Part shown: piece by piece, positions 12,223-63,900 of the stretch | How positions within the stretch are numbered: the stretch's first letter is position 1 | How the letters are laid out: each line of letters begins with the position of its first letter | DNA from: a virus | Virus record (IMG/VR): IMGVR_UViG_3300046616_000188 | Length of the DNA: 64,000 nucleotides | Direction: 5' to 3' (one strand) | The notes under the pieces: model-generated | What the model saw: the letters and a program-made list of their open reading frames with translations, nothing else | Database searches by the model: none | Told to the model about the DNA's origin: nothing | Program-made: the position numbers and the translations under genes

Positions 12223-12468
12223 ATGTTTACGGTATATAGCAGAGATAATTGTGGGTTTTGCGTCAAGGCCTACGACCTTCTGGAAAAGAAGGGTGAAACT
12301 TATAAAAGCGAAAAATTAGACACAGACGAAAAGGTGCAAGCCTTTATCGCTAAGGGTTTCAAACAGGTGCCGCAAATTTATCATAACGATGAGCATATAG
12401 GCGGATACGATAAGCTTGAAGCTTGGTACGCCGCGAGAGAAGTAGACGATAGTGCATTTGATGAATAA
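12223..12468 (+). CDS. nrdH: Glutaredoxin-like NrdH
   Basis: CGFC active site, QVPQI, IGGYD. Confidence 0.85.
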   Translation: MFTVYSRDNCGFCVKAYDLLEKKGETYKSEKLDTDEKVQAFIAKGFKQVPQIYHNDEHIGGYDKLEAWYAAREVDDSAFDE

Positions 12469-38172: not shown

Positions 38173-38257
38173 TGGTGCGGGTAGAGGGACTCGAACCCCC
38201 ACGCACAAGGCACAAGTTTCTAAAACTTGCGTGGCTACCAAATTACACCATACCCGC
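38173..38257 (-). tRNA. tRNA-Leu (TAG)
   Basis: CAAGT-TT TAG AA-ACTTG, long V arm, CCA. Confidence 0.92.
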
Positions 38258-38258
38258 G

Positions 38259-38331
38259 TACTCCCTGATGGATTTGAACCACCGAATGTCTGGATGTAAA
38301 CCAGATGCCTTAACCGCTTGGCGAAAGGAGC
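38259..38331 (-). tRNA. tRNA-Val (TAC), CCA not encoded, abuts tRNA-Leu
   Basis: TCTGG-TT TAC AT-CCAGA; T loop TTCAAAT. Confidence 0.85.
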
Positions 38332-38351
38332 GTGTTAAATTTTATAATCTT

Positions 38352-38428
38352 TGGACCGTCTTCCTTGGATTGAACAAGGATATCGCGATCCACAATCGCG
38401 CGCTCTAACCAATTGAGCTAAAGACGGC
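38352..38428 (-). tRNA. tRNA-His (GTG) with genomic G-1 and U73
   Basis: CGCGA-TT GTG GA-TCGCG; CCA. Confidence 0.9.
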
Positions 38429-38431
38429 TGT

Positions 38432-38505
38432 TGGTTCAGGATGATGGATTCGAACCACCATAACGAGTACCAAAAACTCGCGCCTTACCATTAGACGAAT
38501 CCTGA
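38432..38505 (-). tRNA. tRNA-Gln (TTG)
   Basis: CGAGT-TT TTG GT-ACTCG; U1-A72; CCA. Confidence 0.88.
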
Positions 38506-38512
38506 TTATTAC

Positions 38513-38620
38513 TTACTTATAGCGCTCAAGTATATTGGAAAGACCCGCGCCGGGAGGTTGATAAGATGCGCAAGCCGTTACACTAAAGGTGAGGAAGAGA
38601 ATTACAAATACTTTAAACAT
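38513..38620 (-). CDS. 35-aa lipoprotein (absent from the ORF track)
   Basis: MFKVFVILFLTFSVTAC|ASYQPPGAGLSNILERYK; lipobox VTAC; start overlaps the upstream stop. Confidence 0.6.
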   Translation of the reverse strand: MFKVFVILFLTFSVTACASYQPPGAGLSNILERYK

Positions 38621-38795
38621 TTTCTATTGCTTCCAATTTCTTTTTAGCTTTTTCAATCCCTGCTTCGGCAAAATCTAATAAATATTCGGGGTGACTATCG
38701 TCTTTGTCGTGCTCAAGGAAGATTTTAAGGTTCCAAATCGCACACTGAATATCGTCTCGATAATGATCGCCGTCTGGTAACGCGAAAAGTCCCAT
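38613..38795 (-). CDS. Hypothetical protein
   Basis: 60 aa after an AGGA RBS. Confidence 0.6.
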   Translation of the reverse strand: MGLFALPDGDHYRDDIQCAIWNLKIFLEHDKDDSHPEYLLDFAEAGIEKAKKKLEAIENV

Positions 38796-38810
38796 AACAT
38801 TTCCTAAATT

Positions 38811-38893
38811 TGGTGGACGTAGATGGAGTTGAACCACCAAGCCTTAAGGACCGGAGCTACAATCCGGCGGGCCTGCCAATGCCCAATACGTCC
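38811..38893 (-). tRNA. tRNA-Tyr (GTA)
   Basis: CCGGA-TT GTA GC-TCCGG, long V arm, CCA. Confidence 0.9.
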
Positions 38894-38899
38894 TTATCT

Positions 38900-39283
38900 T
38901 TAAATAGCGTCTGGATGCTTTTCCAGTAGTTTCTTCAACTGCTCAATCTCTTTGGCTTTAGCCTTAGCGGCTTTCTTTTCTGCCGATTCGGCTTGCTTTC
39001 GCTTGGCTTCGGCTTTCCGTTCTAGTTCCGCTTTAACCGCTCTAGCTACTTCATCTTTGATGGACTTAATTGCTTGGAGCGCTCCACCTTCAGGCTCGCG
39101 TACCAGAATATACTGCTGAGTATGGTTATTAACTCTTTGCAGCACATGAAGATTTTGTCTTATAAATTCAAAATCCTCTTCAGAAATTTCTTCCCAATCT
39201 GAGATTCCTTGAGTTAGTATTTGCTCGCAGTCATAATCATCCAAGTGTCTATCGATATACATAAACAATTTAACTTTGACCAT
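38900..39283 (-). CDS. Hypothetical protein with C-terminal coiled coil
   Basis: 127 aa, RBS GGAG. Confidence 0.75.
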   Translation of the reverse strand: MVKVKLFMYIDRHLDDYDCEQILTQGISDWEEISEEDFEFIRQNLHVLQRVNNHTQQYILVREPEGGALQAIKSIKDEVARAVKAELERKAEAKRKQAESAEKKAAKAKAKEIEQLKKLLEKHPDAI

Positions 39284-39299
39284 GACAATCTCCTAAAAT

Positions 39300-39386
39300 T
39301 GGCTGGGGAGGCCGGATTCGAACCGGCGACGGGCTTTCGCCAATGGATTAACAGTCCATCCCCTGCTACCGCTCGGGTACTCCCCA
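39300..39386 (-). tRNA. tRNA-Asn (GTT) with long variable arm
   Basis: ATGGA-CT GTT AA-TCCAT; V arm GGC GAAA GCC; G73; CCA. Confidence 0.85.
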
Positions 39387-39396
39387 TTATTTTTTC

Positions 39397-39425
39397 ATAT
39401 TAACACGAAGATTCGTATTTGTCAA
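39397..39425 (-). promoter_or_regulatory. sigma70-like promoter
   Basis: TTGACA-N17-TAATAT. Confidence 0.7.
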
Positions 39426-39494
39426 CCAATTTAACTAACTCTTGATAGGAAAGTGAACTCTTAGTCTTCTTTCTGTTATTGTCAGAGAACGACA

Positions 39495-39614
39495 TTAACT
39501 CACAATCATGCCTGAGTGGGGAGATTTACCTTTACTAGGGCCGTGAATTCTTTTATGGCCATTTAAAGCTTGTGTAGTTCTAAACTGTTTATCACATAAA
39601 TTACAATTAAACAT
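39495..39614 (-). CDS. 39-aa protein with one classical C2H2 zinc finger (or N-terminal relic of a deleted endonuclease)
   Basis: FNCNLCDKQFRTTQALNGHKRIH = F-x-C-x2-C-x3-F-x5-L-x2-H-x3-H. Confidence 0.6.
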   Translation of the reverse strand: MFNCNLCDKQFRTTQALNGHKRIHGPSKGKSPHSGMIVS

Positions 39615-39638
39615 ATACTATAAATTAATTTTTAAAAT

Positions 39639-39729
39639 TGGCGGAAGGTGCGAAGATTCGAACTCGCGGTCCCTTTTCAGGGACACTTCTTTAGCAAAGA
39701 AGCGGTTTAGGCCTCTCACCCAACCTTCC
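39639..39729 (-). tRNA. tRNA-Ser (GCT)
   Basis: CTTCT-TT GCT AA-AGAAG; long V arm; extra U in the T stem; CCA. Confidence 0.9.
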
Positions 39730-39734
39730 AAATT

Positions 39735-39809
39735 TGGAGACTAGGGCCAGTCTCGAACTGGCACGTGACGGCTTTGCAGGCCGTTGCATAACCCTTCTGC
39801 CTCCTAGTC
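39735..39809 (-). tRNA. tRNA-Cys (GCA)
   Basis: ACGGC-CT GCA AA-GCCGT; U73; CCA. Confidence 0.92.
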
Positions 39810-39812
39810 GAA

Positions 39813-40424
39813 TTAAATGCTAGTCTTACCTGTCGCCATGGCACGATCTTCGTCACTGAAACCTAAATTGGCATCAGAGCCCCACTGCTCATAATACATA
39901 CTGCGGTTTGCAACAGATTTAAATGCCTGCTCGTAATTACCTTTGGTCATGTTAAGAGTTGAGCCGGTTAGAACACCTAGCCCGCTGCTCTGGCCGAATG
40001 CATCAAAATCAGCGCCGATGAATACAACGTCGTAACCAGTTGTTTTGAAGTTATCAAGAATTGTTTTCGTGCCATTCTTATCAAATTCGCGGCTCGCATT
40101 TTCAAGGCCGTCAGTAACGATAATGATTGAAGCCTTCTTAGGAGCCTTAAGTGTTAGAAGCTGATTCAGCGCGCCAATCGCATCGAACAATGGCGTCATA
40201 CCACGTGGCAATACTTCTGTGGCTGAAATCGGATTCCAATCCTTAAGCTTTACGTCTTTTCTAATAACCTTAAACGGTTCTTGATTATCAAAAACTGTTA
40301 CAGATACTGAAGCCTTAGTCTTAGCTTCTTTCAAAGCTGTGACATAAGCATTTACAGCGCCGATAGTTTCATCCCAACGAGACTGCATCGAACCGGAACG
40401 GTCAATCAAAATTTCTACTTGCAT
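39813..40424 (-). CDS. von Willebrand factor A domain protein
   Basis: MIDAS DRSGSM, GMTPLFDAIG, IVTDGLENAS. Confidence 0.92.
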   Translation of the reverse strand: MQVEILIDRSGSMQSRWDETIGAVNAYVTALKEAKTKASVSVTVFDNQEPFKVIRKDVKLKDWNPISATEVLPRGMTPLFDAIGALNQLLTLKAPKKASIIIVTDGLENASREFDKNGTKTILDNFKTTGYDVVFIGADFDAFGQSSGLGVLTGSTLNMTKGNYEQAFKSVANRSMYYEQWGSDANLGFSDEDRAMATGKTSI

Positions 40425-40449
40425 TATAAGTCCTTTGTCGAGTTAGTTA

Positions 40450-40541
40450 TGGCGGAAGGGGTGGGATTCGAACCCACGGAACCCTCTCGGGTCCTTCGGT
40501 TTTCAAGACCGACTCAATCGGCCAGACTCTGACACCCTTCC
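40450..40541 (-). tRNA. tRNA-Ser (TGA)
   Basis: TCGGT-CT TGA AA-ACCGA; long V arm; CCA. Confidence 0.92.
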
Positions 40542-40545
40542 ATTA

Positions 40546-40627
40546 TGGAGCACGCCGAGGGACTCGAACCCCCATTCTCGTTCCAGTTAGCTTAGTCATC
40601 GTTCGTAGCGATGCGGCATAGGCGTGC
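40546..40627 (-). tRNA. Non-canonical tRNA-Arg (ACG)-like gene without a D-arm
   Basis: GCACGCC/GGCGTGC acceptor, CATCG-CT ACG AA-CGATG, GGGGG-TTCGAGT-CCCTC T arm, CCA; only 7 nt where the D-arm should be and a 23-nt variable region. Confidence 0.7.
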
Positions 40628-40632
40628 ATTAA

Positions 40633-41010
40633 TTAAATATGTGTAATCTTTTTCGCATCTCTGAGGAAAACTTCTGCGCCAATATCCTGCGGCTCAAAAT
40701 ATTCTCTAACGAGATTAATTACTTCATTTTCATCATAGTCTTTACAGCTGAAAATGTCAAGATAGAAATCACCGTCATGATCGACAAAGTGACCAGTAAT
40801 ATTTGACGTTTCGATCATTTGAATAAATGAAATGCCTGCCTTGACCGGATCGTGAGTGGCGAAACGCTCGATCCAGAGCGGGCCGTATTTAACCATGTCA
40901 ATCTTTACCACTAGCTCATCAACGAACTTAGCGATGTGTTCTTTAGACGTTACGGCAGGGATAGACCCGGCCCGCGCATCAATAATTAGGTGTTTTCCCC
41001 AATACTGCAT
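40633..41010 (-). CDS. speD: S-adenosylmethionine decarboxylase-family pyruvoyl enzyme
   Basis: WGKHLIIDA, IETSNITGH (autocleavage Ser), YLDIFSCK. Confidence 0.85.
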   Translation of the reverse strand: MQYWGKHLIIDARAGSIPAVTSKEHIAKFVDELVVKIDMVKYGPLWIERFATHDPVKAGISFIQMIETSNITGHFVDHDGDFYLDIFSCKDYDENEVINLVREYFEPQDIGAEVFLRDAKKITHI

Positions 41011-41297
41011 TAGATTTCCTCTAGAACTTCAACGTTAAAGCCCTGACGCTTCGAACCAAAAGGATAAGCCTTACCGAGATTAACTACCGGCGCGTAACGC
41101 TCGTGGCGAGGCTTGACATAGGCCTGATATGCCCTAACAGCTTTACCTTCTTCGTTCCTAAAAACTGTGACGCGGCCTTCTACGAGTTGATCCAGAGGAT
41201 GGACCTTGTATCCTTCGCTCTTCTTAGTCTCAGCTACAACAGTGGTAGATACCGTGGCTGTTTCGCCTTCACGTAGTGTAACACTTACATCTTCCAA
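41010..41297 (-). CDS. Hypothetical protein
   Basis: 95 aa, coupled to the next gene. Confidence 0.65.
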   Translation of the reverse strand: MEDVSVTLREGETATVSTTVVAETKKSEGYKVHPLDQLVEGRVTVFRNEEGKAVRAYQAYVKPRHERYAPVVNLGKAYPFGSKRQGFNVEVLEEI

Positions 41298-41331
41298 AAT
41301 ACTTTATCCTTTTTAATTTCTAATTTTTAAT

Positions 41332-41406
41332 TGGCACGACGCTCGGAACTCGAATCCGGTTTCTCGGTTTTGGAGACCGACGTTTTACCGCATAAACTAT
41401 CGCCGC
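41332..41406 (-). tRNA. tRNA-Trp (CCA)
   Basis: TCGGT-CT CCA AA-ACCGA; G73; CCA. Confidence 0.87.
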
Positions 41407-41409
41407 AAA

Positions 41410-41486
41410 TGGTGGAACAGAATGGAATCGAACCACTGACCTTCTGAGCTTCAATCAGACACTCTACCAGACTGAGTTACTGTTCC
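41410..41486 (-). tRNA. tRNA-Phe (GAA)
   Basis: TCTGA-TT GAA GC-TCAGA; CCA. Confidence 0.92.
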
Positions 41487-41644
41487 GAGATTAATTTTCG
41501 ATAATATTCTATGGAAAAGTAATATGTTTTCCCATTCGTATCGTAAGCCATGACGAAGCATAGCCAAACTTTTCGAGTAATACCATCACCCTGATAAGCC
41601 TTCACAGGTGACCAAGCGAACCGTTTTCTATAGGCGTAGTTCAT
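41477..41644 (-). CDS. Hypothetical small protein
   Basis: 55 aa between tRNAs; 3' end overlaps tRNA-Phe. Confidence 0.45.
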   Translation of the reverse strand: MNYAYRKRFAWSPVKAYQGDGITRKVWLCFVMAYDTNGKTYYFSIEYYRKLISEQ

Positions 41645-41672
41645 TAATGAGACTCGCTTCAAACTTAAATTT

Positions 41673-41747
41673 TGGAGCGGGTGAATGGTATCGAGCCATC
41701 CTCTTCAGTTTGGAAAACTGAGGCCCATCCATCTAGACCACACCAGC
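41673..41747 (-). tRNA. tRNA-Gly (TCC)
   Basis: TCAGT-TT TCC AA-ACTGA; U73; variant T loop CTCGATA; CCA. Confidence 0.85.
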
Positions 41748-41749
41748 AA

Positions 41750-41893
41750 ATTCTGTGACGGTTACTACCCCTCCGTCGTAGCTATTTCGTTGCTACAGAT
41801 GTTCCAGTGGTTGGACGGATCGTTTCAAGTGAGACACCCGTAGGCCCTCGAAACAGGGTTGCAACGATCAAACTACTTGATCCTGTTCTGGAA
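41750..41893 (-). ncRNA. Candidate structured RNA between tRNA-Thr and tRNA-Gly
   Basis: Complementary pairs TTCCAG/CTGGAA, GATCGTT/AACGATC, TCAAGT/ACTTGA, GTAGC/GCTAC, GACGG/CCGTC; no credible ORF. Confidence 0.45.
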
Positions 41894-41976
41894 TGGTGCT
41901 GGACACAGGATTCGAACCTGCGACGTGGGATTCTTCCTTACAAGAGAAGCGCTTTCGACCGCTCAGCCAATCCAGC
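41894..41976 (-). tRNA. tRNA-Thr (TGT) with extended variable region
   Basis: CTTCT-CT TGT AA-GGAAG; 11-nt V region; CCA. Confidence 0.85.
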
Positions 41977-41989
41977 ATAGGAAAGACGC

Positions 41990-42316
41990 TTACGCGTCGA
42001 TCCACTTAAAAATGTCTTCCCTAGTGATTTGCTTATCACCGTACTTATTAACCATGGCGAGTACGCGAGGCACAATAACAACCACTAGCTTATTGCTGCT
42101 GTGGATTTTTACCTCTACGGACTTGTAAGCCCTGCCATCTAGAAACGCACGAGCTAAGAATGTGGCTCGATTTTCGTTCCTAACGTCCCATGTCCTATGT
42201 TGTCTCAGGGACCAGAACGCGGGCTTATTTTTTGCTTTTTGTTTCCTCTCTTCGAAGCGAATGATTTTGGCTTCTTCGGTGAGGTGTTTAGATTTAACTT
42301 TTAGTTCGATACTCAT
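41990..42316 (-). CDS. Hypothetical basic protein
   Basis: 108 aa, GGAG RBS. Confidence 0.75.
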   Translation of the reverse strand: MSIELKVKSKHLTEEAKIIRFEERKQKAKNKPAFWSLRQHRTWDVRNENRATFLARAFLDGRAYKSVEVKIHSSNKLVVVIVPRVLAMVNKYGDKQITREDIFKWIDA

Positions 42317-42455
42317 TTGTATTCTCCATTAGATTATTTGATTGCCATTGTCAAGTGATTATTTGACGATTTAAGGTGGCCCTCTAATGGAAAGTATTAA
42401 TGTTTTTTCAAGCTACGTGTTATCGCCCATTTTTAAATCCTTTATATGGGTAGTT

Positions 42456-42529
42456 TGGTGGGATTACCCGGAATCGAACCGAGGTAAAAGAGTTTAGAAT
42501 TCCCTGCTCTACCATTGAGCTATAATCCC
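42456..42529 (-). tRNA. tRNA with CUA anticodon (putative amber suppressor; alternative register TCT/Arg)
   Basis: Perfect acceptor, D and T arms; anticodon arm GGGAA-TT CTA AA-CTCTT is weak. Confidence 0.65.
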
Positions 42530-42597
42530 TTTGGTCGAGGCTTCGCACCCCGTTGTCGATTGTCCCTTTTAACTACAGGCCTATCGATAATGCCAAT

Positions 42598-42678
42598 TGG
42601 TCTGAGTGGCAAGGATTTGAACCTGCGACCTTCCTCTTGAATGGTCGAGGATGCTCTGTCCCGCTGAGCTACACCCAA
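42598..42678 (-). tRNA. tRNA-like gene with a 10-nt anticodon loop (undetermined or pseudo-tRNA)
   Basis: TCCTC-GACCATTCAA-GAGGA; normal D arm; extra U in the T stem; CCA. Confidence 0.65.
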
Positions 42679-42711
42679 GTCATAAATTCAGTTGGTGATG
42701 ATAATATCAAC

Positions 42712-43074
42712 TCAAGAAAAATGTTTTTCCATGTGACACCTACAACAAAGTAGTATACATTTTTCTGCTTCGTTCAAGTAAGTTTCCCATGAAAGTTTGA
42801 CCGCGTCGGAAGCGTTCATTTCTTTATTAGGATCAGGATGGTGCCACTCCAATGCGGCTCCTATTTTGTCATACCCACATTCTTGACAACCAATGTTTAT
42901 TTTATGATTGCGCATCCTTTGTGAATACAAATGGTGCCGTAAGTTTTTTCGTTCTTGTTTAGAAAGTCCTTCGGGCATACAATCAAAACAAAATTTTCTG
43001 TTTGTTCCACCTGAGCCTTTTCTATTTGGTTCAAAATTTTTTGAGCAATAATCACAAAACATTATCATTTCCAA
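42712..43074 (-). CDS. HNH endonuclease with N-terminal Cys cluster
   Basis: CDYC...CFDC; GCQECG...LEWHHPDP...KCILLCCRCH. Confidence 0.88.
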   Translation of the reverse strand: MEMIMFCDYCSKNFEPNRKGSGGTNRKFCFDCMPEGLSKQERKNLRHHLYSQRMRNHKINIGCQECGYDKIGAALEWHHPDPNKEMNASDAVKLSWETYLNEAEKCILLCCRCHMEKHFS

Positions 43075-43079
43075 AATTA

Positions 43080-43156
43080 TGGTCGGAGTGATCAGGATCG
43101 AACTGATGACCTTACCGCCCCAAACGGTACGCGCTACCAGACTGCGCTACACTCCG
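43080..43156 (-). tRNA. tRNA-Pro (TGG)
   Basis: TACCG-TT TGG GG-CGGTA; C1-G72, A73; CCA. Confidence 0.93.
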
Positions 43157-43157
43157 T

Positions 43158-43254
43158 ATTCTTTTATTGTGGGGCACCAGTACCTAATAAAATCAACTCA
43201 GATGCAGTGAGTTAAAGATCAGGTTTGCATCCCGGTGCCTCCCAATAAAAGAAT
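43158..43254. ncRNA. Candidate pseudoknotted RNA A
   Basis: 12-bp perfect closing stem plus GGCACC/GGTGCC; inner hairpin AACTCA/TGAGTT whose loop GATGCA pairs with TGCATC. Confidence 0.55.
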
Positions 43255-43256
43255 GT

Positions 43257-43311
43257 GCTAGGACGAACGAGTTACCGGCGTACCTGTAACTTCATTCTAA
43301 AGACGCCTAGC
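43257..43311 (-). ncRNA. Candidate pseudoknotted RNA B
   Basis: GCTAG/CTAGC closing stem; 11-bp hairpin whose loop ACGC(C) pairs with upstream (G)GCGT. Confidence 0.45.
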
Positions 43312-43325
43312 CGCCTTCTCATTCA

Positions 43326-43466
43326 TTACAGAATAGAATTCTGCCTAGCAATTTCCCTGATATCACATCGTGAGATACCAAGATCGGCAAGTTCCCTATT
43401 TGTCAAACGCTCTAGCTCACGAACCGTTTGACGCTGCTTCTTCCACTTATTGAGAAAATTGAACAT
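43326..43466 (-). CDS. DUF1127-family small protein, 46 aa (absent from the ORF track)
   Basis: RQTVRELERLTNRELADLGISRCDI matches the DUF1127 consensus R.T.REL..L.DRELADIGI.R.DI; AAGGA RBS. Confidence 0.85.
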   Translation of the reverse strand: MFNFLNKWKKQRQTVRELERLTNRELADLGISRCDIREIARQNSIL

Positions 43467-43770
43467 GTTAATCCTTGTAATGTTCTAGTTTTCTCCTCCA
43501 CTGATCTTCTCCCAATATAAATTGGAGAAAGACTGTATTGCTTCCCATGCAATTAAATCACCAAGGGCACTTAAACTATCTGTAAAGAAAGGTGTTTACA
43601 GAGTAGAGCGGGACGGTCCACAATTCCAAAAGGCTTTTACGAAGAGCTTCCCCATTACTCACCTAATGTCGTTTTATCTAGTTCGGTGTACGCCGATCAT
43701 TCCCTCAACAGCCCTTATCGCTATGATTTGGCACATCGTACAACGTACCGGCTTATAGCTATGGTGAACT

Positions 43771-43847
43771 TGGTATCAGTGACTTGACTTGAACAAATGA
43801 CCTCTTCCTTATCAGGGAAGTGCTCTAACCAACTGAGCTACACTGAC
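43771..43847 (-). tRNA. tRNA-Ile (GAT)
   Basis: CTTCC-CT GAT AA-GGAAG; CCA. Confidence 0.92.
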
Positions 43848-43852
43848 AAACT

Positions 43853-43924
43853 GTTTCTGAAGGCAGGTTTATGACTAACCTTATTTAAGTGAGGCGGACA
43901 GTACGCGACATCACCCTTCAAAAC
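43853..43924 (-). ncRNA. Candidate 72-nt three-way-junction RNA
   Basis: GTTTTGAAGG/CCTTCAGAAAC closing stem, GTGA/TCAC arm, AGGTT/AACCT hairpin with a 7-nt loop. Confidence 0.4.
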
Positions 43925-43928
43925 TTTT

Positions 43929-44082
43929 TGTTTCTGAGCCTTCACCCTCTAGCTTTCTGCAAGACCTAGGATGACCTTCGCCGCAAATTGCGTCCAATTC
44001 GCTGACACCGTTTACCAGACCCCCGAAAGTTTCCAGACTTTCTTCGCGATAACTGACGTGCCGAAGGTGAAGCTCAGAAACA
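43929..44082 (-). ncRNA. Candidate 154-nt structured RNA
   Basis: 17-bp closing stem TGTTTCTGAGC-TTCACC/GGTGAA-G-GCTCAGAAACA; inner ACCTTCG/CGAAGGT, GAAAGT/ACTTTC. Confidence 0.6.
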
Positions 44083-44135
44083 GCACCTTTGATCCTGATA
44101 TATGACGACTTTGGGCCGCTAATTTTGGAGGTGCC

Positions 44136-44164
44136 ATTATTGTGGTTGATTTGGTTTGTGTCAA
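44136..44164 (-). promoter_or_regulatory. sigma70-like promoter upstream of the ncRNA candidates
   Basis: TTGACA-N17-AATAAT. Confidence 0.55.
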
Positions 44165-44223
44165 CGGTTTACAACCATCCGCATGTCTAGGATTGTTCCA
44201 GTAGTGCCGGAACCGTGCCAGAT

Positions 44224-44334
44224 TTACTTGCTTGCTTGAGATTTACTTGAGGCTGGTCTAACTTCTACGCCATTAATAAAAACAGCGACGTACTTAGTGC
44301 CATCAAGATTAATAATTTCTTTAGTCGTTACCAC
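44224..44334 (-). CDS. Possible 36-aa protein
   Basis: GTG start after GAGG, overlaps the upstream stop; MVTTKEIINLDGTKYVAVFINGVEV... Confidence 0.35.
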   Translation of the reverse strand: MVTTKEIINLDGTKYVAVFINGVEVRPASSKSQASK

Positions 44335-44524
44335 GAGTCACCTCTCCATAAAATTTCAGGTGAATGATGGTTCTTCCGGTCGGGTACGGATAACCATCAT
44401 CCCCATCTACATATTCTCTTTCGATATTTACGTCCCTTACATTAACTCTCTTACCGTCTAGAATAACGTTAAAGCTTTTGGCTTCATCTGGATCAGCCGG
44501 AATTGAATTAATATAAAGATTCAT
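44321..44524 (-). CDS. Hypothetical protein
   Basis: 67 aa; start moved out of tRNA-Met. Confidence 0.6.
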   Translation of the reverse strand: MNLYINSIPADPDEAKSFNVILDGKRVNVRDVNIEREYVDGDDGYPYPTGRTIIHLKFYGEVTRGND

Positions 44525-44540
44525 TTCACACTCTATGTTT

Positions 44541-44617
44541 TGGTTGCGGGTGTCAGAATCGAACTGACGTGATTGGCTTATGAGACCATGCTGGAACCGC
44601 CTCCAGTCCAACCCGCA
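44541..44617 (-). tRNA. tRNA-Met (CAT), initiator-like acceptor stem
   Basis: TGGT-CT CAT AA-GCCA; TGCGGGT/ACCCGCA; CCA; lacks the three G-C pairs of bacterial initiators. Confidence 0.85.
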
Positions 44618-57881: not shown

Positions 57882-57921
57882 GTCGTTAACTCCTTTGTTC
57901 ATACATAGACCATATAGAACA

Positions 57922-57952
57922 ATGTAAGATAACGCAATACATTATCTTACAT
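57922..57952. repeat. Early palindrome variant
   Basis: ATGTAAGATAA-N9-TTATCTTACAT. Confidence 0.65.
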
Positions 57953-58071
57953 CAATCATAATCTATTATATATTACATATCACTAATGAATATATAATGT
58001 ATAATAGATTAACCTATGCAGCAGGTAGGCTATGGGCCATGCACCATATGGAGCATGGCCTATAGATGGGC

Positions 58072-58566
58072 TTATACCTTGATAAGCGTGCGCTGATGCA
58101 TGCACTGGATATTATAACCGCCAGCAACGATTGTGTTGATGGTAACGACCTTGCGGCCCTTGTCAGTCATGACAACAAAAACCCCGTCAAAGCCGTTTGC
58201 AGAACGGGAATAATCAGAAGAAACAACTTCCAGAATTCCGGCCTTTTCCAGCTTTGCCGAAATGCTCGCATTGCGCTTTGCTATGGTCGCGGCGCAATTT
58301 TTCGTAACGAATTCTTCAACCATTTTCGGGCTGCGACCGTAAAAAACGTTCCACCATGTTTTGCCGCCAGCAACGTTGAAAAGACCGTCATAATAAGCGC
58401 TTTCACCCATGGCGCGGCGCTTAGCTGAATTCTCGGCAACATATTCTTTGATTGCAGCAACGCGGCCCTTTGCCCATTCCTGCTGTCTAGCAACGAATTC
58501 TGCATCAAGCTCAACAAAGATGGAAGCAAGAGCGGTTTCGATGGCTTGGAATGTCTTGTAGGTCAT
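58072..58566 (-). CDS. Early hypothetical protein
   Basis: 164 aa; leader AAGGAAATACGGAA shared with other early genes. Confidence 0.8.
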   Translation of the reverse strand: MTYKTFQAIETALASIFVELDAEFVARQQEWAKGRVAAIKEYVAENSAKRRAMGESAYYDGLFNVAGGKTWWNVFYGRSPKMVEEFVTKNCAATIAKRNASISAKLEKAGILEVVSSDYSRSANGFDGVFVVMTDKGRKVVTINTIVAGGYNIQCMHQRTLIKV

Positions 58567-58881
58567 TTCCGTATTTCCTTGTTTCGATGATTTAATTTCG
58601 CACGATTCGCTTTTTCTTACAAGCGGAATCTTTCAAAAATTTCACTTTTTTATTGTTTAAGAATTTCGAACAAAATCACTTCATTGTTTACCGTGAACGG
58701 AAAGAGAACAAATCGCACGGCGAAGTTTTCCGATACATGATAGCGCAGATGTAAGAAAACGCTTCTATGGCCTTCTATGGCGGTTTAAATCGCCGTGAAC
58801 AAACGTTCTCTAAACGTTCCGTTTTTGTACCGAAATAAAAAGCGCGCAAGGGGCGCGTTCACATCCTACTGAATTAAAAAT

Positions 58882-58910
58882 AGAATAAATAAAAAATTGA
58901 TTCTTGGCAA
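58882..58910 (-). promoter_or_regulatory. sigma70-like promoter in a long non-coding gap
   Basis: TTGCCA-N17-TATTCT. Confidence 0.55.
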
Positions 58911-59099
58911 GCCCCTTTAAAAATAAAAATCGCGCTCCACAAAAAGCCTTTTAGAGCCTTGTGGAACGCGTTTAACAGTTTTGGCTAGGGCAATCCGCCC
59001 TAACCCCTATTTGCTTATCCTAGGCCATTCTAGAGCGGCCAAATGCACCATAGCAGCACGCAAGCCGCGATAAATCCCGCTAGTTGAAACAATCCGATT

Positions 59100-59339
59100 C
59101 TAGCTCCTTTTCGGCCTAGTTGCGGGAATGGCGATTCTTTGCCCATTAGCGAACCGGCAAGAGGCGAAACGCTCCTTAACGTCGTCTAGCGCGTCACTGT
59201 AAACGATTCGATTGGAGGGGCTGTTATTGATCGTTTCGGCCATGGCAAAGCAGGAGTCTTGCGTGCCAATGTCAAACCGCGACAATGTTGCGGTTTGATC
59301 GGGCGAATTGAGGATTAGAACAAGGATTAGCTTTTCCAT
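59100..59339 (-). CDS. Small protein with hydrophobic N-terminus
   Basis: 79 aa, MEKLILVLIL; ends in TAG. Confidence 0.6.
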   Translation of the reverse strand: MEKLILVLILNSPDQTATLSRFDIGTQDSCFAMAETINNSPSNRIVYSDALDDVKERFASCRFANGQRIAIPATRPKRS

Positions 59340-59340
59340 G

Positions 59341-59937
59341 TCAAATTGCCTGAATAACTTTGTAGCCAATGGCTCTAAGGTAATTCAAGCCGGATTCGCG
59401 GAAACATGAGCTATAGCCGGTTTCGCAATCATCCGACATTTCCCATTCCCTTTGCAGCTTGAAAGCCGTTTCTTTGACTTCCTCCCATCTTGCGTTTTTC
59501 GTGTCTGCATCAGTGTCAGCGATTCCAAGCGCTTCATACGCCTTTTCATACCAGTCATTGCTGTAAACGGTTCTGCCGGTCGCCTTGCTGATACTGGTAT
59601 AATTTGCCAGACTATAACCCTTTTTGGGCTGATAGTCACGCGGATAAAGCTTGTGCCCTTTTGGCGGTTTCGGCGCGTCTTCACTGCTAGCGTGATTCGT
59701 CATCTTGTGCCCGTCAATCGTCATTCCAGAAAGAGCGGCAGTGAATTTGTCATAGCCATAGCCTCCCGCCGTGGCATGCTGAAACTCGCCATTGAAATCA
59801 TGCACATTGACAAGGCAAGTCCCGCCGTCGCTGAAATGCGCCTTGATCGTTGCGACATGTTCGCCTTTCTTGTTCAAGACGACATAGGCCGAAATGCTCT
59901 TGCCTGCTTTGGTATCATGCACATATTTGGTCGCCAT
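59341..59937 (-). CDS. Early hypothetical protein
   Basis: 198 aa, AGGYGYDK motif, AAGGAG RBS. Confidence 0.8.
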   Translation of the reverse strand: MATKYVHDTKAGKSISAYVVLNKKGEHVATIKAHFSDGGTCLVNVHDFNGEFQHATAGGYGYDKFTAALSGMTIDGHKMTNHASSEDAPKPPKGHKLYPRDYQPKKGYSLANYTSISKATGRTVYSNDWYEKAYEALGIADTDADTKNARWEEVKETAFKLQREWEMSDDCETGYSSCFRESGLNYLRAIGYKVIQAI

Positions 59938-59953
59938 GCTTAAAACTCCTTTG

Positions 59954-60003
59954 TAAGCATTTAGGAATGGCGCTATGACATAGCGCCATGGTCTAAAGGC
60001 TTA
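59954..60003 (-). promoter_or_regulatory. Long leader hairpin, putative RNase III site
   Basis: TAAGC/GCTTA, TTTAG/CTAAA, ATGGCGCTATG/CATAGCGCCAT directly before the RBS. Confidence 0.55.
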
Positions 60004-60192
60004 AGCTTTCACCTTGTATTTAAGCGAGGCGAAAGAGTGGGATACACTTTCAACAAAAACGTTGTTTGTGTTGACAATAACCACGATACGAGACGTTACG
60101 GCGGATACAATGAATTCGCGGCGCTCCTCATTAACGAGAATCATGCCTTTAACAAACTGAATTCCCTTGTAATCTACATGGCCCATAAACAT
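60001..60192 (-). CDS. Early hypothetical protein
   Basis: 63 aa after a promoter cassette and AAGGAAATAAGCAG leader. Confidence 0.6.
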   Translation of the reverse strand: MFMGHVDYKGIQFVKGMILVNEERREFIVSAVTSRIVVIVNTNNVFVESVSHSFASLKYKVKA

Positions 60193-60214
60193 CTGCTTAT
60201 TTCCTTGTTTCGAT

Positions 60215-60248
60215 AGATGTAAGTTAGAACATTTCCTTACATCTGGCA
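60215..60248 (-). promoter_or_regulatory. Palindromic early promoter cassette (type B)
   Basis: TTGCCA-N17-TAACTT containing AGATGTAAG-N12-CTTACATCT. Confidence 0.75.
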
Positions 60249-60258
60249 AGAGGGAATT

Positions 60259-60570
60259 TTAAAAAAGTTGCAGAGTGTTTATGTAAACGCGGAAATAAAT
60301 CAAGCGTCCTGCATCGCTATCGGGATCAATACCGGCTTCATAGCAAGTATCTAATGCGTTTTGATCAGCTGAATCATGCTTCGCTTGTGTCGCCTTGCCG
60401 CGATAGTGAAGCGCGGTAGCGGCTTCATTGCGGATTGCCTCAAGCAATGCGGCAAAGGCTTTATCTTCCACGTTCCAAGCCTCAAGAGTTTGCGCATTAT
60501 CGGCAATTTCCTTTGCAGCCTGATATGCGAGAAATTCAGCCGCGAAGTTGGTTACAAGCTCATTTGCCAT
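60259..60570 (-). CDS. Early hypothetical protein
   Basis: 103 aa, GAGG RBS. Confidence 0.75.
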   Translation of the reverse strand: MANELVTNFAAEFLAYQAAKEIADNAQTLEAWNVEDKAFAALLEAIRNEAATALHYRGKATQAKHDSADQNALDTCYEAGIDPDSDAGRLIYFRVYINTLQLF

Positions 60571-60591
60571 TGCCGTTTCCTCTTGTTCGAT

Positions 60592-60625
60592 AGATGTAAG
60601 TTAGAACATTTTCTTACATCTGGCA
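60592..60625 (-). promoter_or_regulatory. Palindromic early promoter cassette (type B)
   Basis: Near-identical copy of the 60215 cassette. Confidence 0.75.
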
Positions 60626-60655
60626 AGAGAGAATTTTAAAAAAGTGAAGCGCTCC

Positions 60656-61414
60656 TTAGAGCGCTTTAGGCCGATTAACGATTGTCGTCTTGACGCCTTT
60701 ATAATCGTTATGCTGCTTTACCGTCGCTTTGAAAGAGATGGTATCTCCCATTTTCCCCATCTCGTTATTGAAGAATGAAACAATGTCGTTACCGATTCTA
60801 ACTTTCGTGATAGTGTAACCGGCTTGGAATTCCGTTTCCTGCTTTTCAATGAAAGCAAAAATTTCGCCTTTAAATTCGCGACGTTCGCCAATCGTGCCAA
60901 TGAAGGAAGAAAGAGAGTCAACTGCGAAGCGTTCGGCGCGGATTGCCTCGCGTTTGGCAATCAAACCCTTTTCCAGTGCAACGCCTTGGCAAGCCGCAAT
61001 CAAGGCATTGGAAACCATGTTAGCTTCGCTCAAAGCTTGATCCGCAAAATACAGCACATATGAATCAGGAGCATCAACAATCTTGACGCCTTTGTGTTTA
61101 CCGAACGGAAAAACGCCGCTTTCAATCGCTTCAATGTTGCGCGTGTCATAGATCGAAAGTTTGCCACGGCGCTTGTCAGCGACAAATTCAGGGCAATCAT
61201 CAAGAATGATGACAAGGCTTTCTTGATCAGCAACGCGTTGCTGCAAACGCTCTACATAGTCCGTTGCCTTCTCAATTGCTTTTTCTTCCGTAGCAGCAAG
61301 ATTGCAGATGTAGTTATCAAGAAAATGAACGTTGCCACGTACCGCGACTCGCAGTGTGTACATAGCATTTTTAGCGCCGGTCGAAATGTAGTAATTGCGA
61401 ATCTGCTTTTCCAT
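60656..61414 (-). CDS. Early protein with a DUF3820-like motif and putative C-terminal OB fold
   Basis: FPFGKHKG..I.D.P..YV; C-terminal GDTISFKATVKQH..YKG.KTT...RPK. Confidence 0.7.
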   Translation of the reverse strand: MEKQIRNYYISTGAKNAMYTLRVAVRGNVHFLDNYICNLAATEEKAIEKATDYVERLQQRVADQESLVIILDDCPEFVADKRRGKLSIYDTRNIEAIESGVFPFGKHKGVKIVDAPDSYVLYFADQALSEANMVSNALIAACQGVALEKGLIAKREAIRAERFAVDSLSSFIGTIGERREFKGEIFAFIEKQETEFQAGYTITKVRIGNDIVSFFNNEMGKMGDTISFKATVKQHNDYKGVKTTIVNRPKAL

Positions 61415-61436
61415 TTCCGTATTCCCTTTAATTGCG

Positions 61437-61479
61437 TTGACCATGTAAGGAAGATACGACTCTTTCCTTACATGGTCAA
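61437..61479 (-). promoter_or_regulatory. Palindromic early promoter cassette (type A)
   Basis: TTGACCATGTAAGGAA-N11-TTCCTTACATGGTCAA; -35 TTGACC, N17, -10 TATCTT. Confidence 0.85.
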
Positions 61480-61498
61480 TAGGCAAATCACGGAATTT

Positions 61499-61624
61499 TT
61501 AATAAAACCGCTTTTCGTTTCCGTCGCGCTTATCCGCCGCAACGAAAGAGAAAACGTTGCGCCTTGCGGCCTTATCACGTCTTGCGTTCTGGATTGCGCG
61601 CTTGTTCATTTTGTTCTGCGACAT
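61499..61624 (-). CDS. 41-aa basic protein (absent from the ORF track)
   Basis: MSQNKMNKRAIQNARRDKAARRNVF...; AAGGAG RBS. Confidence 0.55.
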   Translation of the reverse strand: MSQNKMNKRAIQNARRDKAARRNVFSFVAADKRDGNEKRFY

Positions 61625-61681
61625 GCTCTTAACTCCTTTTGAGCTTATCCCGTTCCACCATTGGAACGGGAAACGTTGCGG

Positions 61682-62068
61682 TTAATATTCGATATCTGCA
61701 CTCAGCGCGGAATGAAAACATTCCGCGATGTAGTCTTTGATTTGGCGCTTGTCGCGTCCAGTGACGCGGATTGTGAAGCCATACACAAGAGAAGGCGTCA
61801 CAATAACCTTGTGCATGGTCCAACCATCGTAATAGCCTGCATCGTTCATGTGATGAAATCCCGTTTCAAAAACGAGACGTTCCGGCTTGCTTTCATCATC
61901 GTTGAATTGCGTTCCAGAATCGAAGCCGGAACCGGATGGCATAACATTTTTGCAAATGTCTGTAATGGCGTCTTCGTGCTTTTCCAGCCATTCCACATTG
62001 CCGGATTTCTCGCAATTCAGCATTGCTTGGAACCGATTCGCAATTTCCTGATAAACTTTGCGCTGCAT
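61682..62068 (-). CDS. Early hypothetical protein
   Basis: 128 aa, MPSGSGFDSG and FHHMN..GYYDGWT motifs; GGAG RBS. Confidence 0.8.
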   Translation of the reverse strand: MQRKVYQEIANRFQAMLNCEKSGNVEWLEKHEDAITDICKNVMPSGSGFDSGTQFNDDESKPERLVFETGFHHMNDAGYYDGWTMHKVIVTPSLVYGFTIRVTGRDKRQIKDYIAECFHSALSADIEY

Positions 62069-62073
62069 TTCCG

Positions 62074-62280
62074 TTACTCCTTAACGGGCTCGATTGAAAA
62101 GATTTCGGACATTGCGCCTTCATAGGCAAAAACGTCGAAATGGTCTGGATTGTCGCTATCCTCTTCAATGAACATATCAGAGAACATTGTGAGAATGAAC
62201 GCCTTTGCCGCATCAACCGTTTCCACGGTCTTGAGCAGCTTTTTCGCGCCATTCGCGATTGTCTCGATTTTGTAGGCCAT
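62074..62280 (-). CDS. Early hypothetical protein
   Basis: 68 aa after a promoter cassette. Confidence 0.7.
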   Translation of the reverse strand: MAYKIETIANGAKKLLKTVETVDAAKAFILTMFSDMFIEEDSDNPDHFDVFAYEGAMSEIFSIEPVKE

Positions 62281-62296
62281 TTCTTCAATCCCTTGT

Positions 62297-62339
62297 TTGA
62301 CTATGTAAGGATATTAAAATCATTTCCTTACATAGTCAA
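62297..62339 (-). promoter_or_regulatory. Palindromic early promoter cassette (type A, co-varied)
   Basis: TTGACTATGTAAGGA-N13-TCCTTACATAGTCAA; -10 TAATAT. Confidence 0.85.
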
Positions 62340-62348
62340 TACCTTTTT

Positions 62349-62669
62349 TCACTTAAATTTCACTTTGACGCTATGCCAGCCAGCCTTAACGCTTACAACG
62401 CGTTTTCCAGCCGGAACAAACGTTGTGTTGCCTACCTGCTTAAACTTGCCATTCGACAAGCGTCGAATCACGTTGAACGGTTCAAAGCCTGTTACAGCGT
62501 TCCACGCGGTAAAGAATGCCGCATCTCTTGCAACGCTATCGCCACGCAAGTTTTCGCTTGTGGCATGAATGCACTTGCCATTGTGCCACAACGTAAACGC
62601 GTTAGTTTGCGTTTCGTAGCACTTAATTTCCACTCCCATTTTATAGCGGGAAAAAATAAGGTTCTGCAT
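62349..62669 (-). CDS. Early hypothetical protein
   Basis: 106 aa, AAGGAG RBS. Confidence 0.7.
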   Translation of the reverse strand: MQNLIFSRYKMGVEIKCYETQTNAFTLWHNGKCIHATSENLRGDSVARDAAFFTAWNAVTGFEPFNVIRRLSNGKFKQVGNTTFVPAGKRVVSVKAGWHSVKVKFK

Positions 62670-62673
62670 TGGC

Positions 62674-62892
62674 TTAGCTCCTTAAAGCCGTTTTGGCTTC
62701 ATTCATGACACTGAAAAGCGCGCGGCGCGTTCTGGTAAAGCTTGCCGGAACCGATACGCGATTAAGAAGGCCTAGCGCCTTGCACATAGCGTTGTAACGC
62801 GTTTCATGGCAAACCGTACCATCTCGGCTTTCAAGCCAGCGCAAGCGGCTTACAATGGCTTGAATCTCGTTTTTGATGTAAGTATCAGTCAT
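62674..62892 (-). CDS. Early hypothetical protein
   Basis: 72 aa, GGAG RBS. Confidence 0.7.
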   Translation of the reverse strand: MTDTYIKNEIQAIVSRLRWLESRDGTVCHETRYNAMCKALGLLNRVSVPASFTRTRRALFSVMNEAKTALRS

Positions 62893-62909
62893 GGCCTTAG
62901 CTCCATTGG

Positions 62910-62957
62910 CAAGCGTTTAAGAATGGCGCTCCAATGAGCGCCAAATTTAAAGGCTTA
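62910..62957 (-). promoter_or_regulatory. Long leader hairpin, putative RNase III site
   Basis: TAAGC/GCTTG, TTTAA/TTAAA, TGGCGCTC/GAGCGCCA before the RBS. Confidence 0.55.
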
Positions 62958-63134
62958 GTTGTTTCGTTCAGCTTCGATTGCTTCCATTGCCTCACGAATA
63001 ACGCGAGTCATGTCGGAAAAATCGCCGTGGTTTTCGATGAAAGTAATGGCCCACTCTTTCAGTGAAGGGGAAATGATTCCCAACTCAGTCAAGACCATTT
63101 TTTCCTTCAAAGCCTTTGTTTCTGCGTTTGCCAT
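62955..63134 (-). CDS. Early hypothetical protein
   Basis: 59 aa, AAGGAAATACGGAA leader. Confidence 0.7.
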   Translation of the reverse strand: MANAETKALKEKMVLTELGIISPSLKEWAITFIENHGDFSDMTRVIREAMEAIEAERNN

Positions 63135-63150
63135 TTCCGTATTTCCTTTG

Positions 63151-63193
63151 TTGACCATGTAAGGAACTTAAACGCTTTTCCTTACATGGTCAA
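63151..63193 (-). promoter_or_regulatory. Palindromic early promoter cassette (type A)
   Basis: 16-bp perfect arms, 11-nt spacer; -10 TAAGTT. Confidence 0.85.
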
Positions 63194-63209
63194 TAGGCTT
63201 TTTAAAAAA

Positions 63210-63548
63210 TTACCATCTTTCGCCAGTAAGCCAAACTTTGAAGTTTTCAGGGAATTTCAAACCATAGGGCAAATCTTTGTTTGCGCGGCAGAACCTGTTA
63301 TGGAGTGCAGGCTTTTCGCTATGCATCCATTTTTTGAAATCTTGATATTCCGGCAAAGCCGCATACATATCGTTTATCTTGTCGCGGTTATGGCAATAAA
63401 CATAACCGCCAAACGGTTGTGCCGTAACGCCTAATGCAGACATGCTGGCGACATAAGTGCGATATTCAGAAAAGAGCGGATGCGACTCATCTGCTTTAGT
63501 CGTAACAGGCTGAATCGGAGCCATGGCGGCGCGTGACATATCAAACAT
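63210..63548 (-). CDS. Early hypothetical protein
   Basis: 112 aa, AAGGAACTAAGCAG leader. Confidence 0.75.
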   Translation of the reverse strand: MFDMSRAAMAPIQPVTTKADESHPLFSEYRTYVASMSALGVTAQPFGGYVYCHNRDKINDMYAALPEYQDFKKWMHSEKPALHNRFCRANKDLPYGLKFPENFKVWLTGERW

Positions 63549-63564
63549 CTGCTTAGTTCCTTTG

Positions 63565-63607
63565 TTGACCATGTAAGGAAGATATGACTCTTTCCTTACA
63601 TGGTCAA
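63565..63607 (-). promoter_or_regulatory. Palindromic early promoter cassette (type A)
   Basis: 16-bp perfect arms, 11-nt spacer; -10 TATCTT. Confidence 0.85.
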
Positions 63608-63615
63608 TAGGCTTT

Positions 63616-63900
63616 TTAAATTTTATTCAGCGCCAAGCGCAAATCATACGTGCGCTTGATATCTGCTCTAATCGCTGCAATCGTCTCAGCGCTAAGACCG
63701 TCAACAATCATGAACGGTTCAACGATATTAGCGCCGCTCAAGTTTTGAACCGTGATAATCACGCCGCTAGCCATATACTTATCGGTATTGGCCTTTCCGA
63801 TATCCCTGTTAGCACTTGCCAGCGTTCCTATATCATGCGCCTTGGATTGCAACAAATCTTTCGCGAGTTGCGCGGTGCGGGAAAGTTTCTTTGCAGTCAT
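63616..63900 (-). CDS. Early hypothetical protein
   Basis: 94 aa, GAGG RBS. Confidence 0.75.
   Translation of the reverse strand: MTAKKLSRTAQLAKDLLQSKAHDIGTLASANRDIGKANTDKYMASGVIITVQNLSGANIVEPFMIVDGLSAETIAAIRADIKRTYDLRLALNKI

Follow-up and report, generated by a model that had tools for sequence, protein, structure and literature searches.

The stretch of viral DNA analyzed here (IMG/VR record IMGVR_UViG_3300046616_000188, 64,000 nt; hereafter the window) carries, between positions 57,922 and 63,607, seven palindromes that share the core ATGTAAG..CTTACAT. All genes around the palindromes are on the minus strand, and each copy stands upstream of such genes, in the gap from one small gene's stop codon to the Shine-Dalgarno (SD) sequence and ATG of the next. 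Seven copies thus occupy 5.7 kb, and the motif count is far above chance: ATGTAAG-N8-22-CTTACAT has 7 matches against 0.00 expected, and TTGACYATGTAAGGA has 8 matches, corresponding to four palindromes, against 0.34 expected. All seven elements listed in the initial annotation, which was made from the letters of the sequence, were recovered. Class A comprises the long copies of 43 bp; those at 61437, 63151 and 63565 have 16-bp arms and an 11-nt loop, and that at 62297 has 15-bp arms and a 13-nt loop. Class B comprises the short copies at 60215 and 60592, with 9-bp arms AGATGTAAG/CTTACATCT and a 12-nt loop. The copy at 57922 has 11-bp arms and a 9-nt loop. Their interpretation as cassettes that combine a promoter with a ribosome-binding site (RBS) and head small ORFan genes is well supported by the sequence analysis described below.

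The window encodes a portal protein, a major head protein, a 1427-aa (amino acid) tape measure protein, a tail fiber J-like protein, a ribonucleotide reductase and a Dda-like helicase. Judging by these genes, the source is a large phage of the rhizosphere, uncultured and equipped with siphovirus-type tail genes, not a T4-type myovirus; its DNA is present in rhizosphere metagenomes, and no RNA run containing it was found. On the minus strand at 38173-44617, the window also contains 17 tRNA genes, one of which (42456-42529) has the anticodon CTA and is a potential amber suppressor.

Megablast of the region against GenBank phages gave no match. In IMG/VR, relatives with about 72-92% nucleotide identity were found as three contigs, which represent two distinct phages, G001 and G002; the third contig, G003, carries the same elements as G002 at matching relative positions, and both were counted as one phage. 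A protein-anchored search for remoter relatives returned the same three contigs only. Rhizobium phage P10VF was considered for comparison; it has one 1190-aa protein at 44% identity, but its gene order is different and it was not useful. Through this one protein, the phage is linked to Rhizobium phages, but only distantly. A scan of metagenome contigs for the palindrome yielded 16 matches, none with the class A spacing and all explained by chance. Other IMG/VR matches to the arm pattern came from 20 unrelated contigs, one group of which represents a different system, tandem CTGTCTTATGTAAG iterons beside a replication-type gene. L025 (IMGVR_UViG_3300033176_000059, 4480-4625) and five similar contigs, from an unrelated virus group picked up only through the shared arm string, contain eight tandem CTGTCTTATGTAAG iterons. 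The iterons end in the palindrome ATGTAAGGAA-N13-TTCCTTACAT, which surrounds TATATATA, and a 188-aa gene follows just downstream, an origin- or operator-like arrangement.

Promoters and cassettes of the early block

On the gene strand, the long copies read TTGAC(C/T)-17-TAnnnT, a sigma-70-type promoter, and an RBS follows in each. The -10 box lies exactly 17 bp after the -35 box in all four long copies of the window, as TATCTT, TAAGTT, TAATAT, and TATCTT. The opposite strand has CTCTTT, GCTTTT, TCATTT, and CTCTTT at the same offset, without a -10 box. The 17-bp spacing reported in the initial annotation therefore holds in four of four long copies, on the gene strand only, and its orientation has to be corrected, as both the genes and the promoters run on the minus strand. 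In the long copies the left arm extends from -35 to -20, the loop from -19 to -9 with the first four bases of the -10 box, and the right arm from -8 to +8. Assuming the usual 7-nt distance, transcription would start at the A of CAT within the second arm. The short copies have a different geometry, TTGCCA-17-TAACTT, with the second arm spanning -10 to -1. Thus, the earlier description of an arm that begins with the -35 box and a mirror arm that covers the start site fits the long copies, but not the short ones, where TTGCCA lies just outside the arm and only its last A is paired.

For comparison of conservation, 14 long copies from the window phage, G001, and G002 were used. None of the 14 departs from T-12, A-11, and T-7, and the remaining loop positions show 0.52 differences per site. 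Three invariant positions in an otherwise variable loop are the signature of a sigma-70-type -10 box. Long cores are preceded by an A/T tract, probably an UP element, and followed by a conserved leader with AAGGAA or AGGGAA, in agreement with the shared AAGGAA-type leader noticed previously. With the -10 signature in every copy, the proposal that promoter-RBS cassettes head the early genes is borne out; promoter activity itself is predicted from the boxes and their conservation.

All cassettes described here are on the minus strand. The first, A1 (63546-63618), consists of the stop codon of the upstream gene, an A/T tract, the 43-bp palindrome (63565-63607), an SD sequence, and ATG 63548 of a 112-aa ORFan; its -35 box is TTGACC (63607-63602) and its -10 box TATCTT (63584-63579). 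Cassette A2 (63132-63212) has its palindrome at 63151-63193, the -10 box TAAGTT, the leader, and ATG 63134, with three small genes downstream. Three small genes also follow A3 (62278-62351), which has its palindrome at 62297-62339, the -10 box TAATAT, ATG 62280, and a TTGACT/AGTCAA double change in the arms. The C-to-T/G-to-A pair seen by the initial annotation in both arms of this copy is real. Cassette A4 (61412-61501; palindrome 61437-61479, -10 box TATCTT) precedes ATG 61414 of a 252-aa protein.

This protein (60656-61414, minus strand; phrog_3628, unknown function) is the sole widely conserved protein of the block, with 48-56% identity to proteins of Pseudomonas, Bordetella, Sinorhizobium, and many Klebsiella phages. 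Its gene is present in the window and in G002; in G001, an unrelated 115-aa gene lies between the same two cassettes. After the 252-aa gene and directly upstream of the next cassette there is a canonical intrinsic terminator (60647-60666, minus strand), an 8-bp G+C-rich stem followed by a T run. The next cassette, B1 (60568-60646), has the -35 box TTGCCA at 60626-60621, the -10 box TAACTT at 60603-60598, arms at 60592-60600 and 60613-60621, and ATG 60570. Cassette B2 (60190-60261) repeats this design, with arms at 60215-60223 and 60236-60244 and ATG 60192. Most of the scanned early-gene proteins have no recognizable relatives in these collections, 12 of 16 being without a PHROG match and 14 of 16 without a Pfam match. 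For such ORFans, the anti-host function supposed in the initial annotation would be conjecture.

The array also contains a 530-bp non-coding stretch (58567-59100) with an apparent decayed short-type cassette before a 164-aa gene. In it, a promoter TTGCCA-17-TATTCT (58910-58882, minus strand) points into a strong terminator (58857-58843), so that a very short RNA is possible.

A second promoter family was observed in the relatives, in G001 at 69299, 72978, 77757, and 78970 and in G002 at 41947, 43214, and 52590. It consists of TTGAC(T/A/C), 13 bp, and (G)ATGTAAG(A/G)AT, and thus shares the ATGTAAG string with the early palindromes; we interpret it as an extended -10 (TGn plus AAGRAT) with an 18-bp spacer. 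A class of GATGTAAGAA promoters lacking the -7 T was considered and rejected, since in G001 and G002 these sites are better described as TTGACN-18-AAG(A/G)AT with TGn, that is, as an ordinary extended -10.

Conservation of the arms

Among the 14 long copies, differences per site are 0.03-0.05 in the arms, 0.43 in the loop, and 0.43-0.48 in the flanks, so the arms are about 10 times more conserved. An example at a single locus is provided by the orthologous trio formed by A4 and its counterparts in G001 and G002, which follow a conserved 41-aa gene: 0 of 96 arm positions are changed against 30 of 141 elsewhere, although the comparisons are not independent, and the loops differ at 5 of 11 positions. 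The double change of the 62297 copy recurs in G002 together with an identical loop. As judged from these comparisons, the symmetry of the palindrome appears to be under constraint, which could reflect either base pairing of the arms or a symmetric protein site.

Several observations favor base pairing. One G002 promoter, TTGACG-17-TAAGTT, carries 12-bp arms, ACGTGAGACAAA/TTTGTCTCACGT, that are unrelated to those of the family but keep its register, the second one beginning at -8; its counterpart in G001 is not palindromic. The left-arm motif A(T/A)GTAAG(G/A)AA, at -29 to -20, recurs in one non-palindromic promoter of both G001 and G002. The left motif therefore seems to serve a separate role, with the second arm as whatever sequence pairs with it. 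Moreover, where the second arm falls within the promoter is not the same in class A as in class B, yet it is always complementary to the upstream half. The initial annotation had noted that the spacing of the core half-sites varies between 17 and 12 nt; this is confirmed, and 16 nt is also seen. Classes A and B differ by 5 bp, half a helical turn, and such a difference, together with the shifted second arm, would be awkward for a rigid dimer. The unrelated-arm promoter, the lone left motif, and the shifted second arm therefore favor base pairing over a symmetric protein site.

A symmetric operator nevertheless has to be considered. Here, a DNA-binding protein of the phage or the host would bind the inverted ATGTAAG/CTTACAT half-sites that flank the -10 box, occlude the polymerase, and shut off the early genes. 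Such a site would account for arms that are almost invariant next to a loop and flanks near saturation, for the 7-bp core common to three otherwise different classes, and for a dyad at about -14 to -18, the classical position for a repressor. The strings TCCTTACAT/ATGTAAGGA are also enriched in the genomes of the relatives, where they occur 15 and 22 times, the reversed control giving 1 and 4, but of the single copies inspected across the genomes most fall in the -10 region of another promoter class or in coding DNA, and lone half-sites in the window (3 and 5 against about 5 expected) show no enrichment. Core spacings of 17, 12, or 16 nt would place half-sites on opposite faces of the helix where they differ by 5 bp, and the palindrome spans all 16 bp including the -35 box, beyond what half-sites need. 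An operator also leaves aside the palindromic G002 promoter that has the same geometry with unrelated arms, and the left motif that occurs without a partner. When 20 proteins from the early array and adjoining genes were scanned with Pfam and PHROG, no DNA-binding domain was detected, nor any helix-turn-helix or repressor-like protein among the early genes, and HTH_3 had no match above the cut-off in G001 and G002, these searches covering part of the genome. On balance, an operator is possible though unlikely. A more elaborate version, in which one phage factor binds inverted ATGTAAG(G/A)A around the early -10 boxes to turn them off and the same motif over the extended -10 of the second promoter class to turn it on, would time the transition from early to middle expression, with the -35 box mirrored across the start as part of the site; we regard it as a long shot.

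Exchange of cassettes between sites and phages

The genes between the cassettes differ among the three phages, and the cassettes remain. The comparison of cassette-bounded gene content in relatives, suggested in the initial annotation, thus revealed a mosaic. Homology blocks stop at cassette edges, at window-oriented positions 444 and 2592 and at 12442 of G001, in all cases just after a cassette. The 43-bp TTGACT core of A3 is identical in the window and in G002, and both flanks and both neighboring genes are unrelated. In G001, the site that is orthologous by its flanks to the G002 TTGACT copy has another core, identical to that of a different G001 copy. The presence of a different core at an orthologous site indicates that the core was exchanged as a unit.

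Similar events are suggested by metagenome contigs. In contigs from four rhizosphere runs, the joint 60269>60656 drops one short cassette with its gene, and the joint 61425>62297 drops the three genes between two long cassettes; loose ends, where contigs diverge, are also seen at 63132 and 63193. All of these points lie at cassette edges. These joints serve as supporting evidence only, as short-read contigs may break or misjoin at repeats longer than the assembler word. From the gene mosaic, the ends of homology blocks, the core swap, and the contig joints, a role of the cassettes as recombination or mosaic joints is well supported, and the corresponding proposal of the initial annotation stands.

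The same exchange raises the question of whether the symmetry has any function of its own. It could be a by-product of spread and repair, with template switching perfecting quasi-palindromes and gene conversion distributing them, so that only the promoter and the homology matter. The transfer of the 43-bp core as a unit, the persistence of G002 copies with uncompensated arm changes, and the existence of several early promoters without any hairpin in the relatives are all consistent with this explanation, and imperfect repeats have been reported to drift toward perfect ones (PMC6060812). At the same time, it explains neither the origin of the 16-bp arms, nor the identical register of the unrelated arm pair, nor the unchanged arms beside variable loops in the orthologous trio. 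Such an origin of the symmetry is distinctly unlikely.

RNA folding, proposed role and known systems

In the initial annotation, the symmetry was held to act necessarily in DNA, on the grounds that the transcript would start inside the second arm. This does not follow, since the cassettes are co-oriented and lack terminators or U-tracts, so that read-through RNA would carry both arms. A scan for intrinsic terminators flagged no class A or class B copy; the elements flagged were the 57922 variant and the terminator at 60647-60666. Indeed, the features of an intrinsic terminator, a G+C-rich stem, a loop of 3-8 nt, and an adjacent U run, are not found in classes A and B, and no U-tract follows the stem. 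In a co-oriented array in which long copies are not terminator-like, transcripts started upstream would carry both arms and fold. For such RNA across the long cassettes, the predicted folding energy is -23.6 to -36.3 kcal/mol, with z from -4.4 to -5.9.

The 57922 variant (57920-57954, minus strand) is different. Its arms in DNA are 11 bp, and its sense RNA forms a 16-pair stem with G.U pairs, a 3-nt loop, and a U-rich tail, with -27.1 kcal/mol for sense against -12.8 for antisense. Its -35 box is weak, TTGATG, and TAGATG in the relatives. Probably, judging from this fold, the element is a hairpin or terminator that ends the array and not one more cassette like the others.

The 170-bp non-coding stretch before this hairpin contains another palindrome, at 58030-58065, with the loop CCATATGG. 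It is also present in G001 (L044, 14677-14710) and G002 (L045, oriented 15044-15082), and its arms show a compensated G:C to C:G change between the two. An A/T-rich 22-bp palindrome (57959-58011) adjoins it. This region may be regulatory or origin-like, at the border of the variable early block.

Three other junctions, all on the minus strand, carry stable hairpins of about 60 nt without a promoter: 62893-62954, with a conserved outer helix and the G+C-rich apical stem GGCGCTC/GAGCGCC (z -3.6); 61625-61681, TCCCGTTCCA/TGGAACGGGA; and 59938-60000, ATGGCGCTAT/ATAGCGCCAT. The hairpins at 62893 and 59938 share an outer helix of the AAGCC-TTTAA ... TTAAA-GCTT type, absent from 61625. Junctions in L044 and L045 carry hairpins of this kind too. 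The junction type of the 62893 hairpin is found in both G001 and G002, with different apical stems. Such hairpins begin in the upstream stop codon and finish at the next SD sequence, and their G+C-rich apical stems vary between copies and phages. By their position and fold, they are candidate sites of RNA processing or stabilization.

Two alternatives concern the folded state itself. According to the cruciform idea of the initial annotation, negative supercoiling would extrude the palindrome and turn the promoter off or on. Perfect arms of 15-16 bp, an A/T-rich upstream flank, and DNA hairpins predicted at -13 to -15 kcal/mol for the long copies agree with extrusion. Screens for cruciform-forming repeats call for arms of at least 5-9 bp and spacers of 0-8 or 1-10 bp, typical loops being 3-6 nt (PMC6060812); the spacers here are longer, with 11-13 nt for class A and 12 nt for class B. 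Class B arms have only 9 bp, with -5.7 kcal/mol, and the stem extension at 57922 uses G.U pairs, which are not usable in DNA. A cruciform switch is thus very improbable. More generally, the long spacers, the half-turn difference in spacing, the unrelated-arm promoter, and the absence of a DNA-binding protein from the scans do not bear out a shut-off switch controlled by supercoiling or by a protein, as it had been proposed; our data neither establish nor exclude it.

The second alternative is a terminator acting on the antisense strand, where a hairpin followed after 5-6 nt by a T run would halt transcription running into the early block opposite to its genes. Three of the four long copies do read, on the plus strand, hairpin, TAGGC or TACC, and TTTTT. 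Yet stem and T run are not contiguous, the terminator scan gave no signal there, 61437 and several of the relatives' copies lack the run, and the A tract is more simply read as an UP element. This explanation is hardly credible.

An RNA-level role of the hairpin is the most likely one, with the symmetric operator as the main rival. Our preferred reading, whose probability we would put at about one half, is that the elements are cassettes of the type described as promoter early stem-loops (PeSLs), in which the hairpin acts on read-through RNA and the arms serve recombination. A transcript from the cassette's own promoter would begin inside the right arm and be unstructured. A transcript reading through from upstream, as we infer to occur, would include the two arms, which would pair as a highly stable hairpin of 15-16 bp. 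This hairpin could work as an attenuator or insulator, or as a site of processing or 3'-end protection, and expression of each gene group would thereby depend chiefly on the promoter that heads it. In addition, the conserved arms would provide short patches of identity where cassettes recombine, shuffling the ORFan genes.

Other observations weigh against such a role. The arm sequence itself, and not pairing alone, is almost invariant, which would also fit a sequence-specific binder. Only a single compensatory pair occurs among the 14 copies. In G002, arm changes without compensation are seen in two copies, and the relatives also have several early promoters that lack a hairpin; the palindrome is therefore not indispensable. 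The lack of a U-tract after the hairpin makes classical termination unlikely, and the role in RNA is a guess. Finally, sense and antisense folding energies at 52 junctions showed no asymmetry, nor did they within class A, so that this comparison does not separate RNA from DNA and action at the RNA level is presumed.

Several known systems combine hairpins or repeats with early phage genes. In T7, stable RNase III hairpins of roughly 20 bp are found at nearly every junction of the co-oriented early unit, and they have no promoters. The hairpins of the window similarly lie at junctions of co-oriented early genes, but they contain promoters, and their cleavage would be hypothetical. N4 hairpin promoters have a stem of 5-7 bp and a 3-nt loop and are read by the phage virion RNA polymerase on extruded single-stranded DNA, without sigma-70 boxes. 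They resemble the cassettes in being promoters with an inverted repeat in early phage DNA; the window, unlike N4, has arms of 9-16 bp, loops of 9-13 nt, and canonical -35 and -10 boxes. The conserved inverted repeats of phiC31 and the stoperators of mycobacteriophage L5 are repressor operators with a fixed geometry and a known repressor. Here too a conserved short sequence is present at many early promoters or junctions, but half a helical turn separates the spacings of the classes, G002 has arms of unrelated sequence in the same geometry, and the scans yielded no repressor candidate.

The closest counterparts are the PeSL cassettes of the T4-type phages RB49/phi1, PST, and nt-1 (Arbiol et al., 2010, PMC2839356; Comeau et al., 2014, PMC4122927). 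A PeSL consists of a stop codon, an AT tract, a promoter with a stem-loop, an SD sequence, and an ATG, the stem-loop being located in the interval that separates the -35 box from the -10 box, overlapping either of them, or just outside; promoter and attenuator activity and recombination between cassettes have been reported (PMC2839356; PMC4122927). The initial annotation had named PeSLs as analogues but set them apart from the present elements. We do not follow it in this separation, as their stem-loops do lie between or overlap the two boxes and the parts come in the same order. In both systems, intergenic repeats occupy a variable, ORFan-rich early region; the stop codon, AT-rich tract, sigma-70-like -35 and -10 boxes, stem-loop, SD sequence, and start codon follow one another in the same order; and where close relatives differ by insertion, deletion, or replacement, the changes end in cassettes. 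With a repeated motif, this order of parts, a stem-loop in the promoter, and differences that end in cassettes all observed, the window cassettes are, by their sequence, of the PeSL type.

The window cassettes depart from PeSLs in three respects: they have a longer and perfect stem, this stem spans the whole promoter, and the phage is of another kind. The stem has 15-16 perfect base pairs, whereas that of PeSLs is of the short G-run/C-run type. It encloses the entire promoter from -35 to +8, which is not among the five positions listed for PeSLs, and no U-tract follows it. The window phage has siphovirus-type tail genes, in contrast to the T4-type myoviruses, and the activities of its cassettes are predicted. 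In practice, such palindromes should be annotated as promoters, not as terminators. Perfect 16-bp arms and the natural variants, one compensated, two uncompensated, and one with unrelated arms, also make a tidy test system for the function of the hairpin. If our reading is true, cassettes with a promoter inside a hairpin that shuffle accessory early genes are not confined to T4-type myoviruses and point to a general plug-and-play solution for early genes, of which a distant soil phage would possess an extreme form, with the stem-loop spanning the whole promoter.

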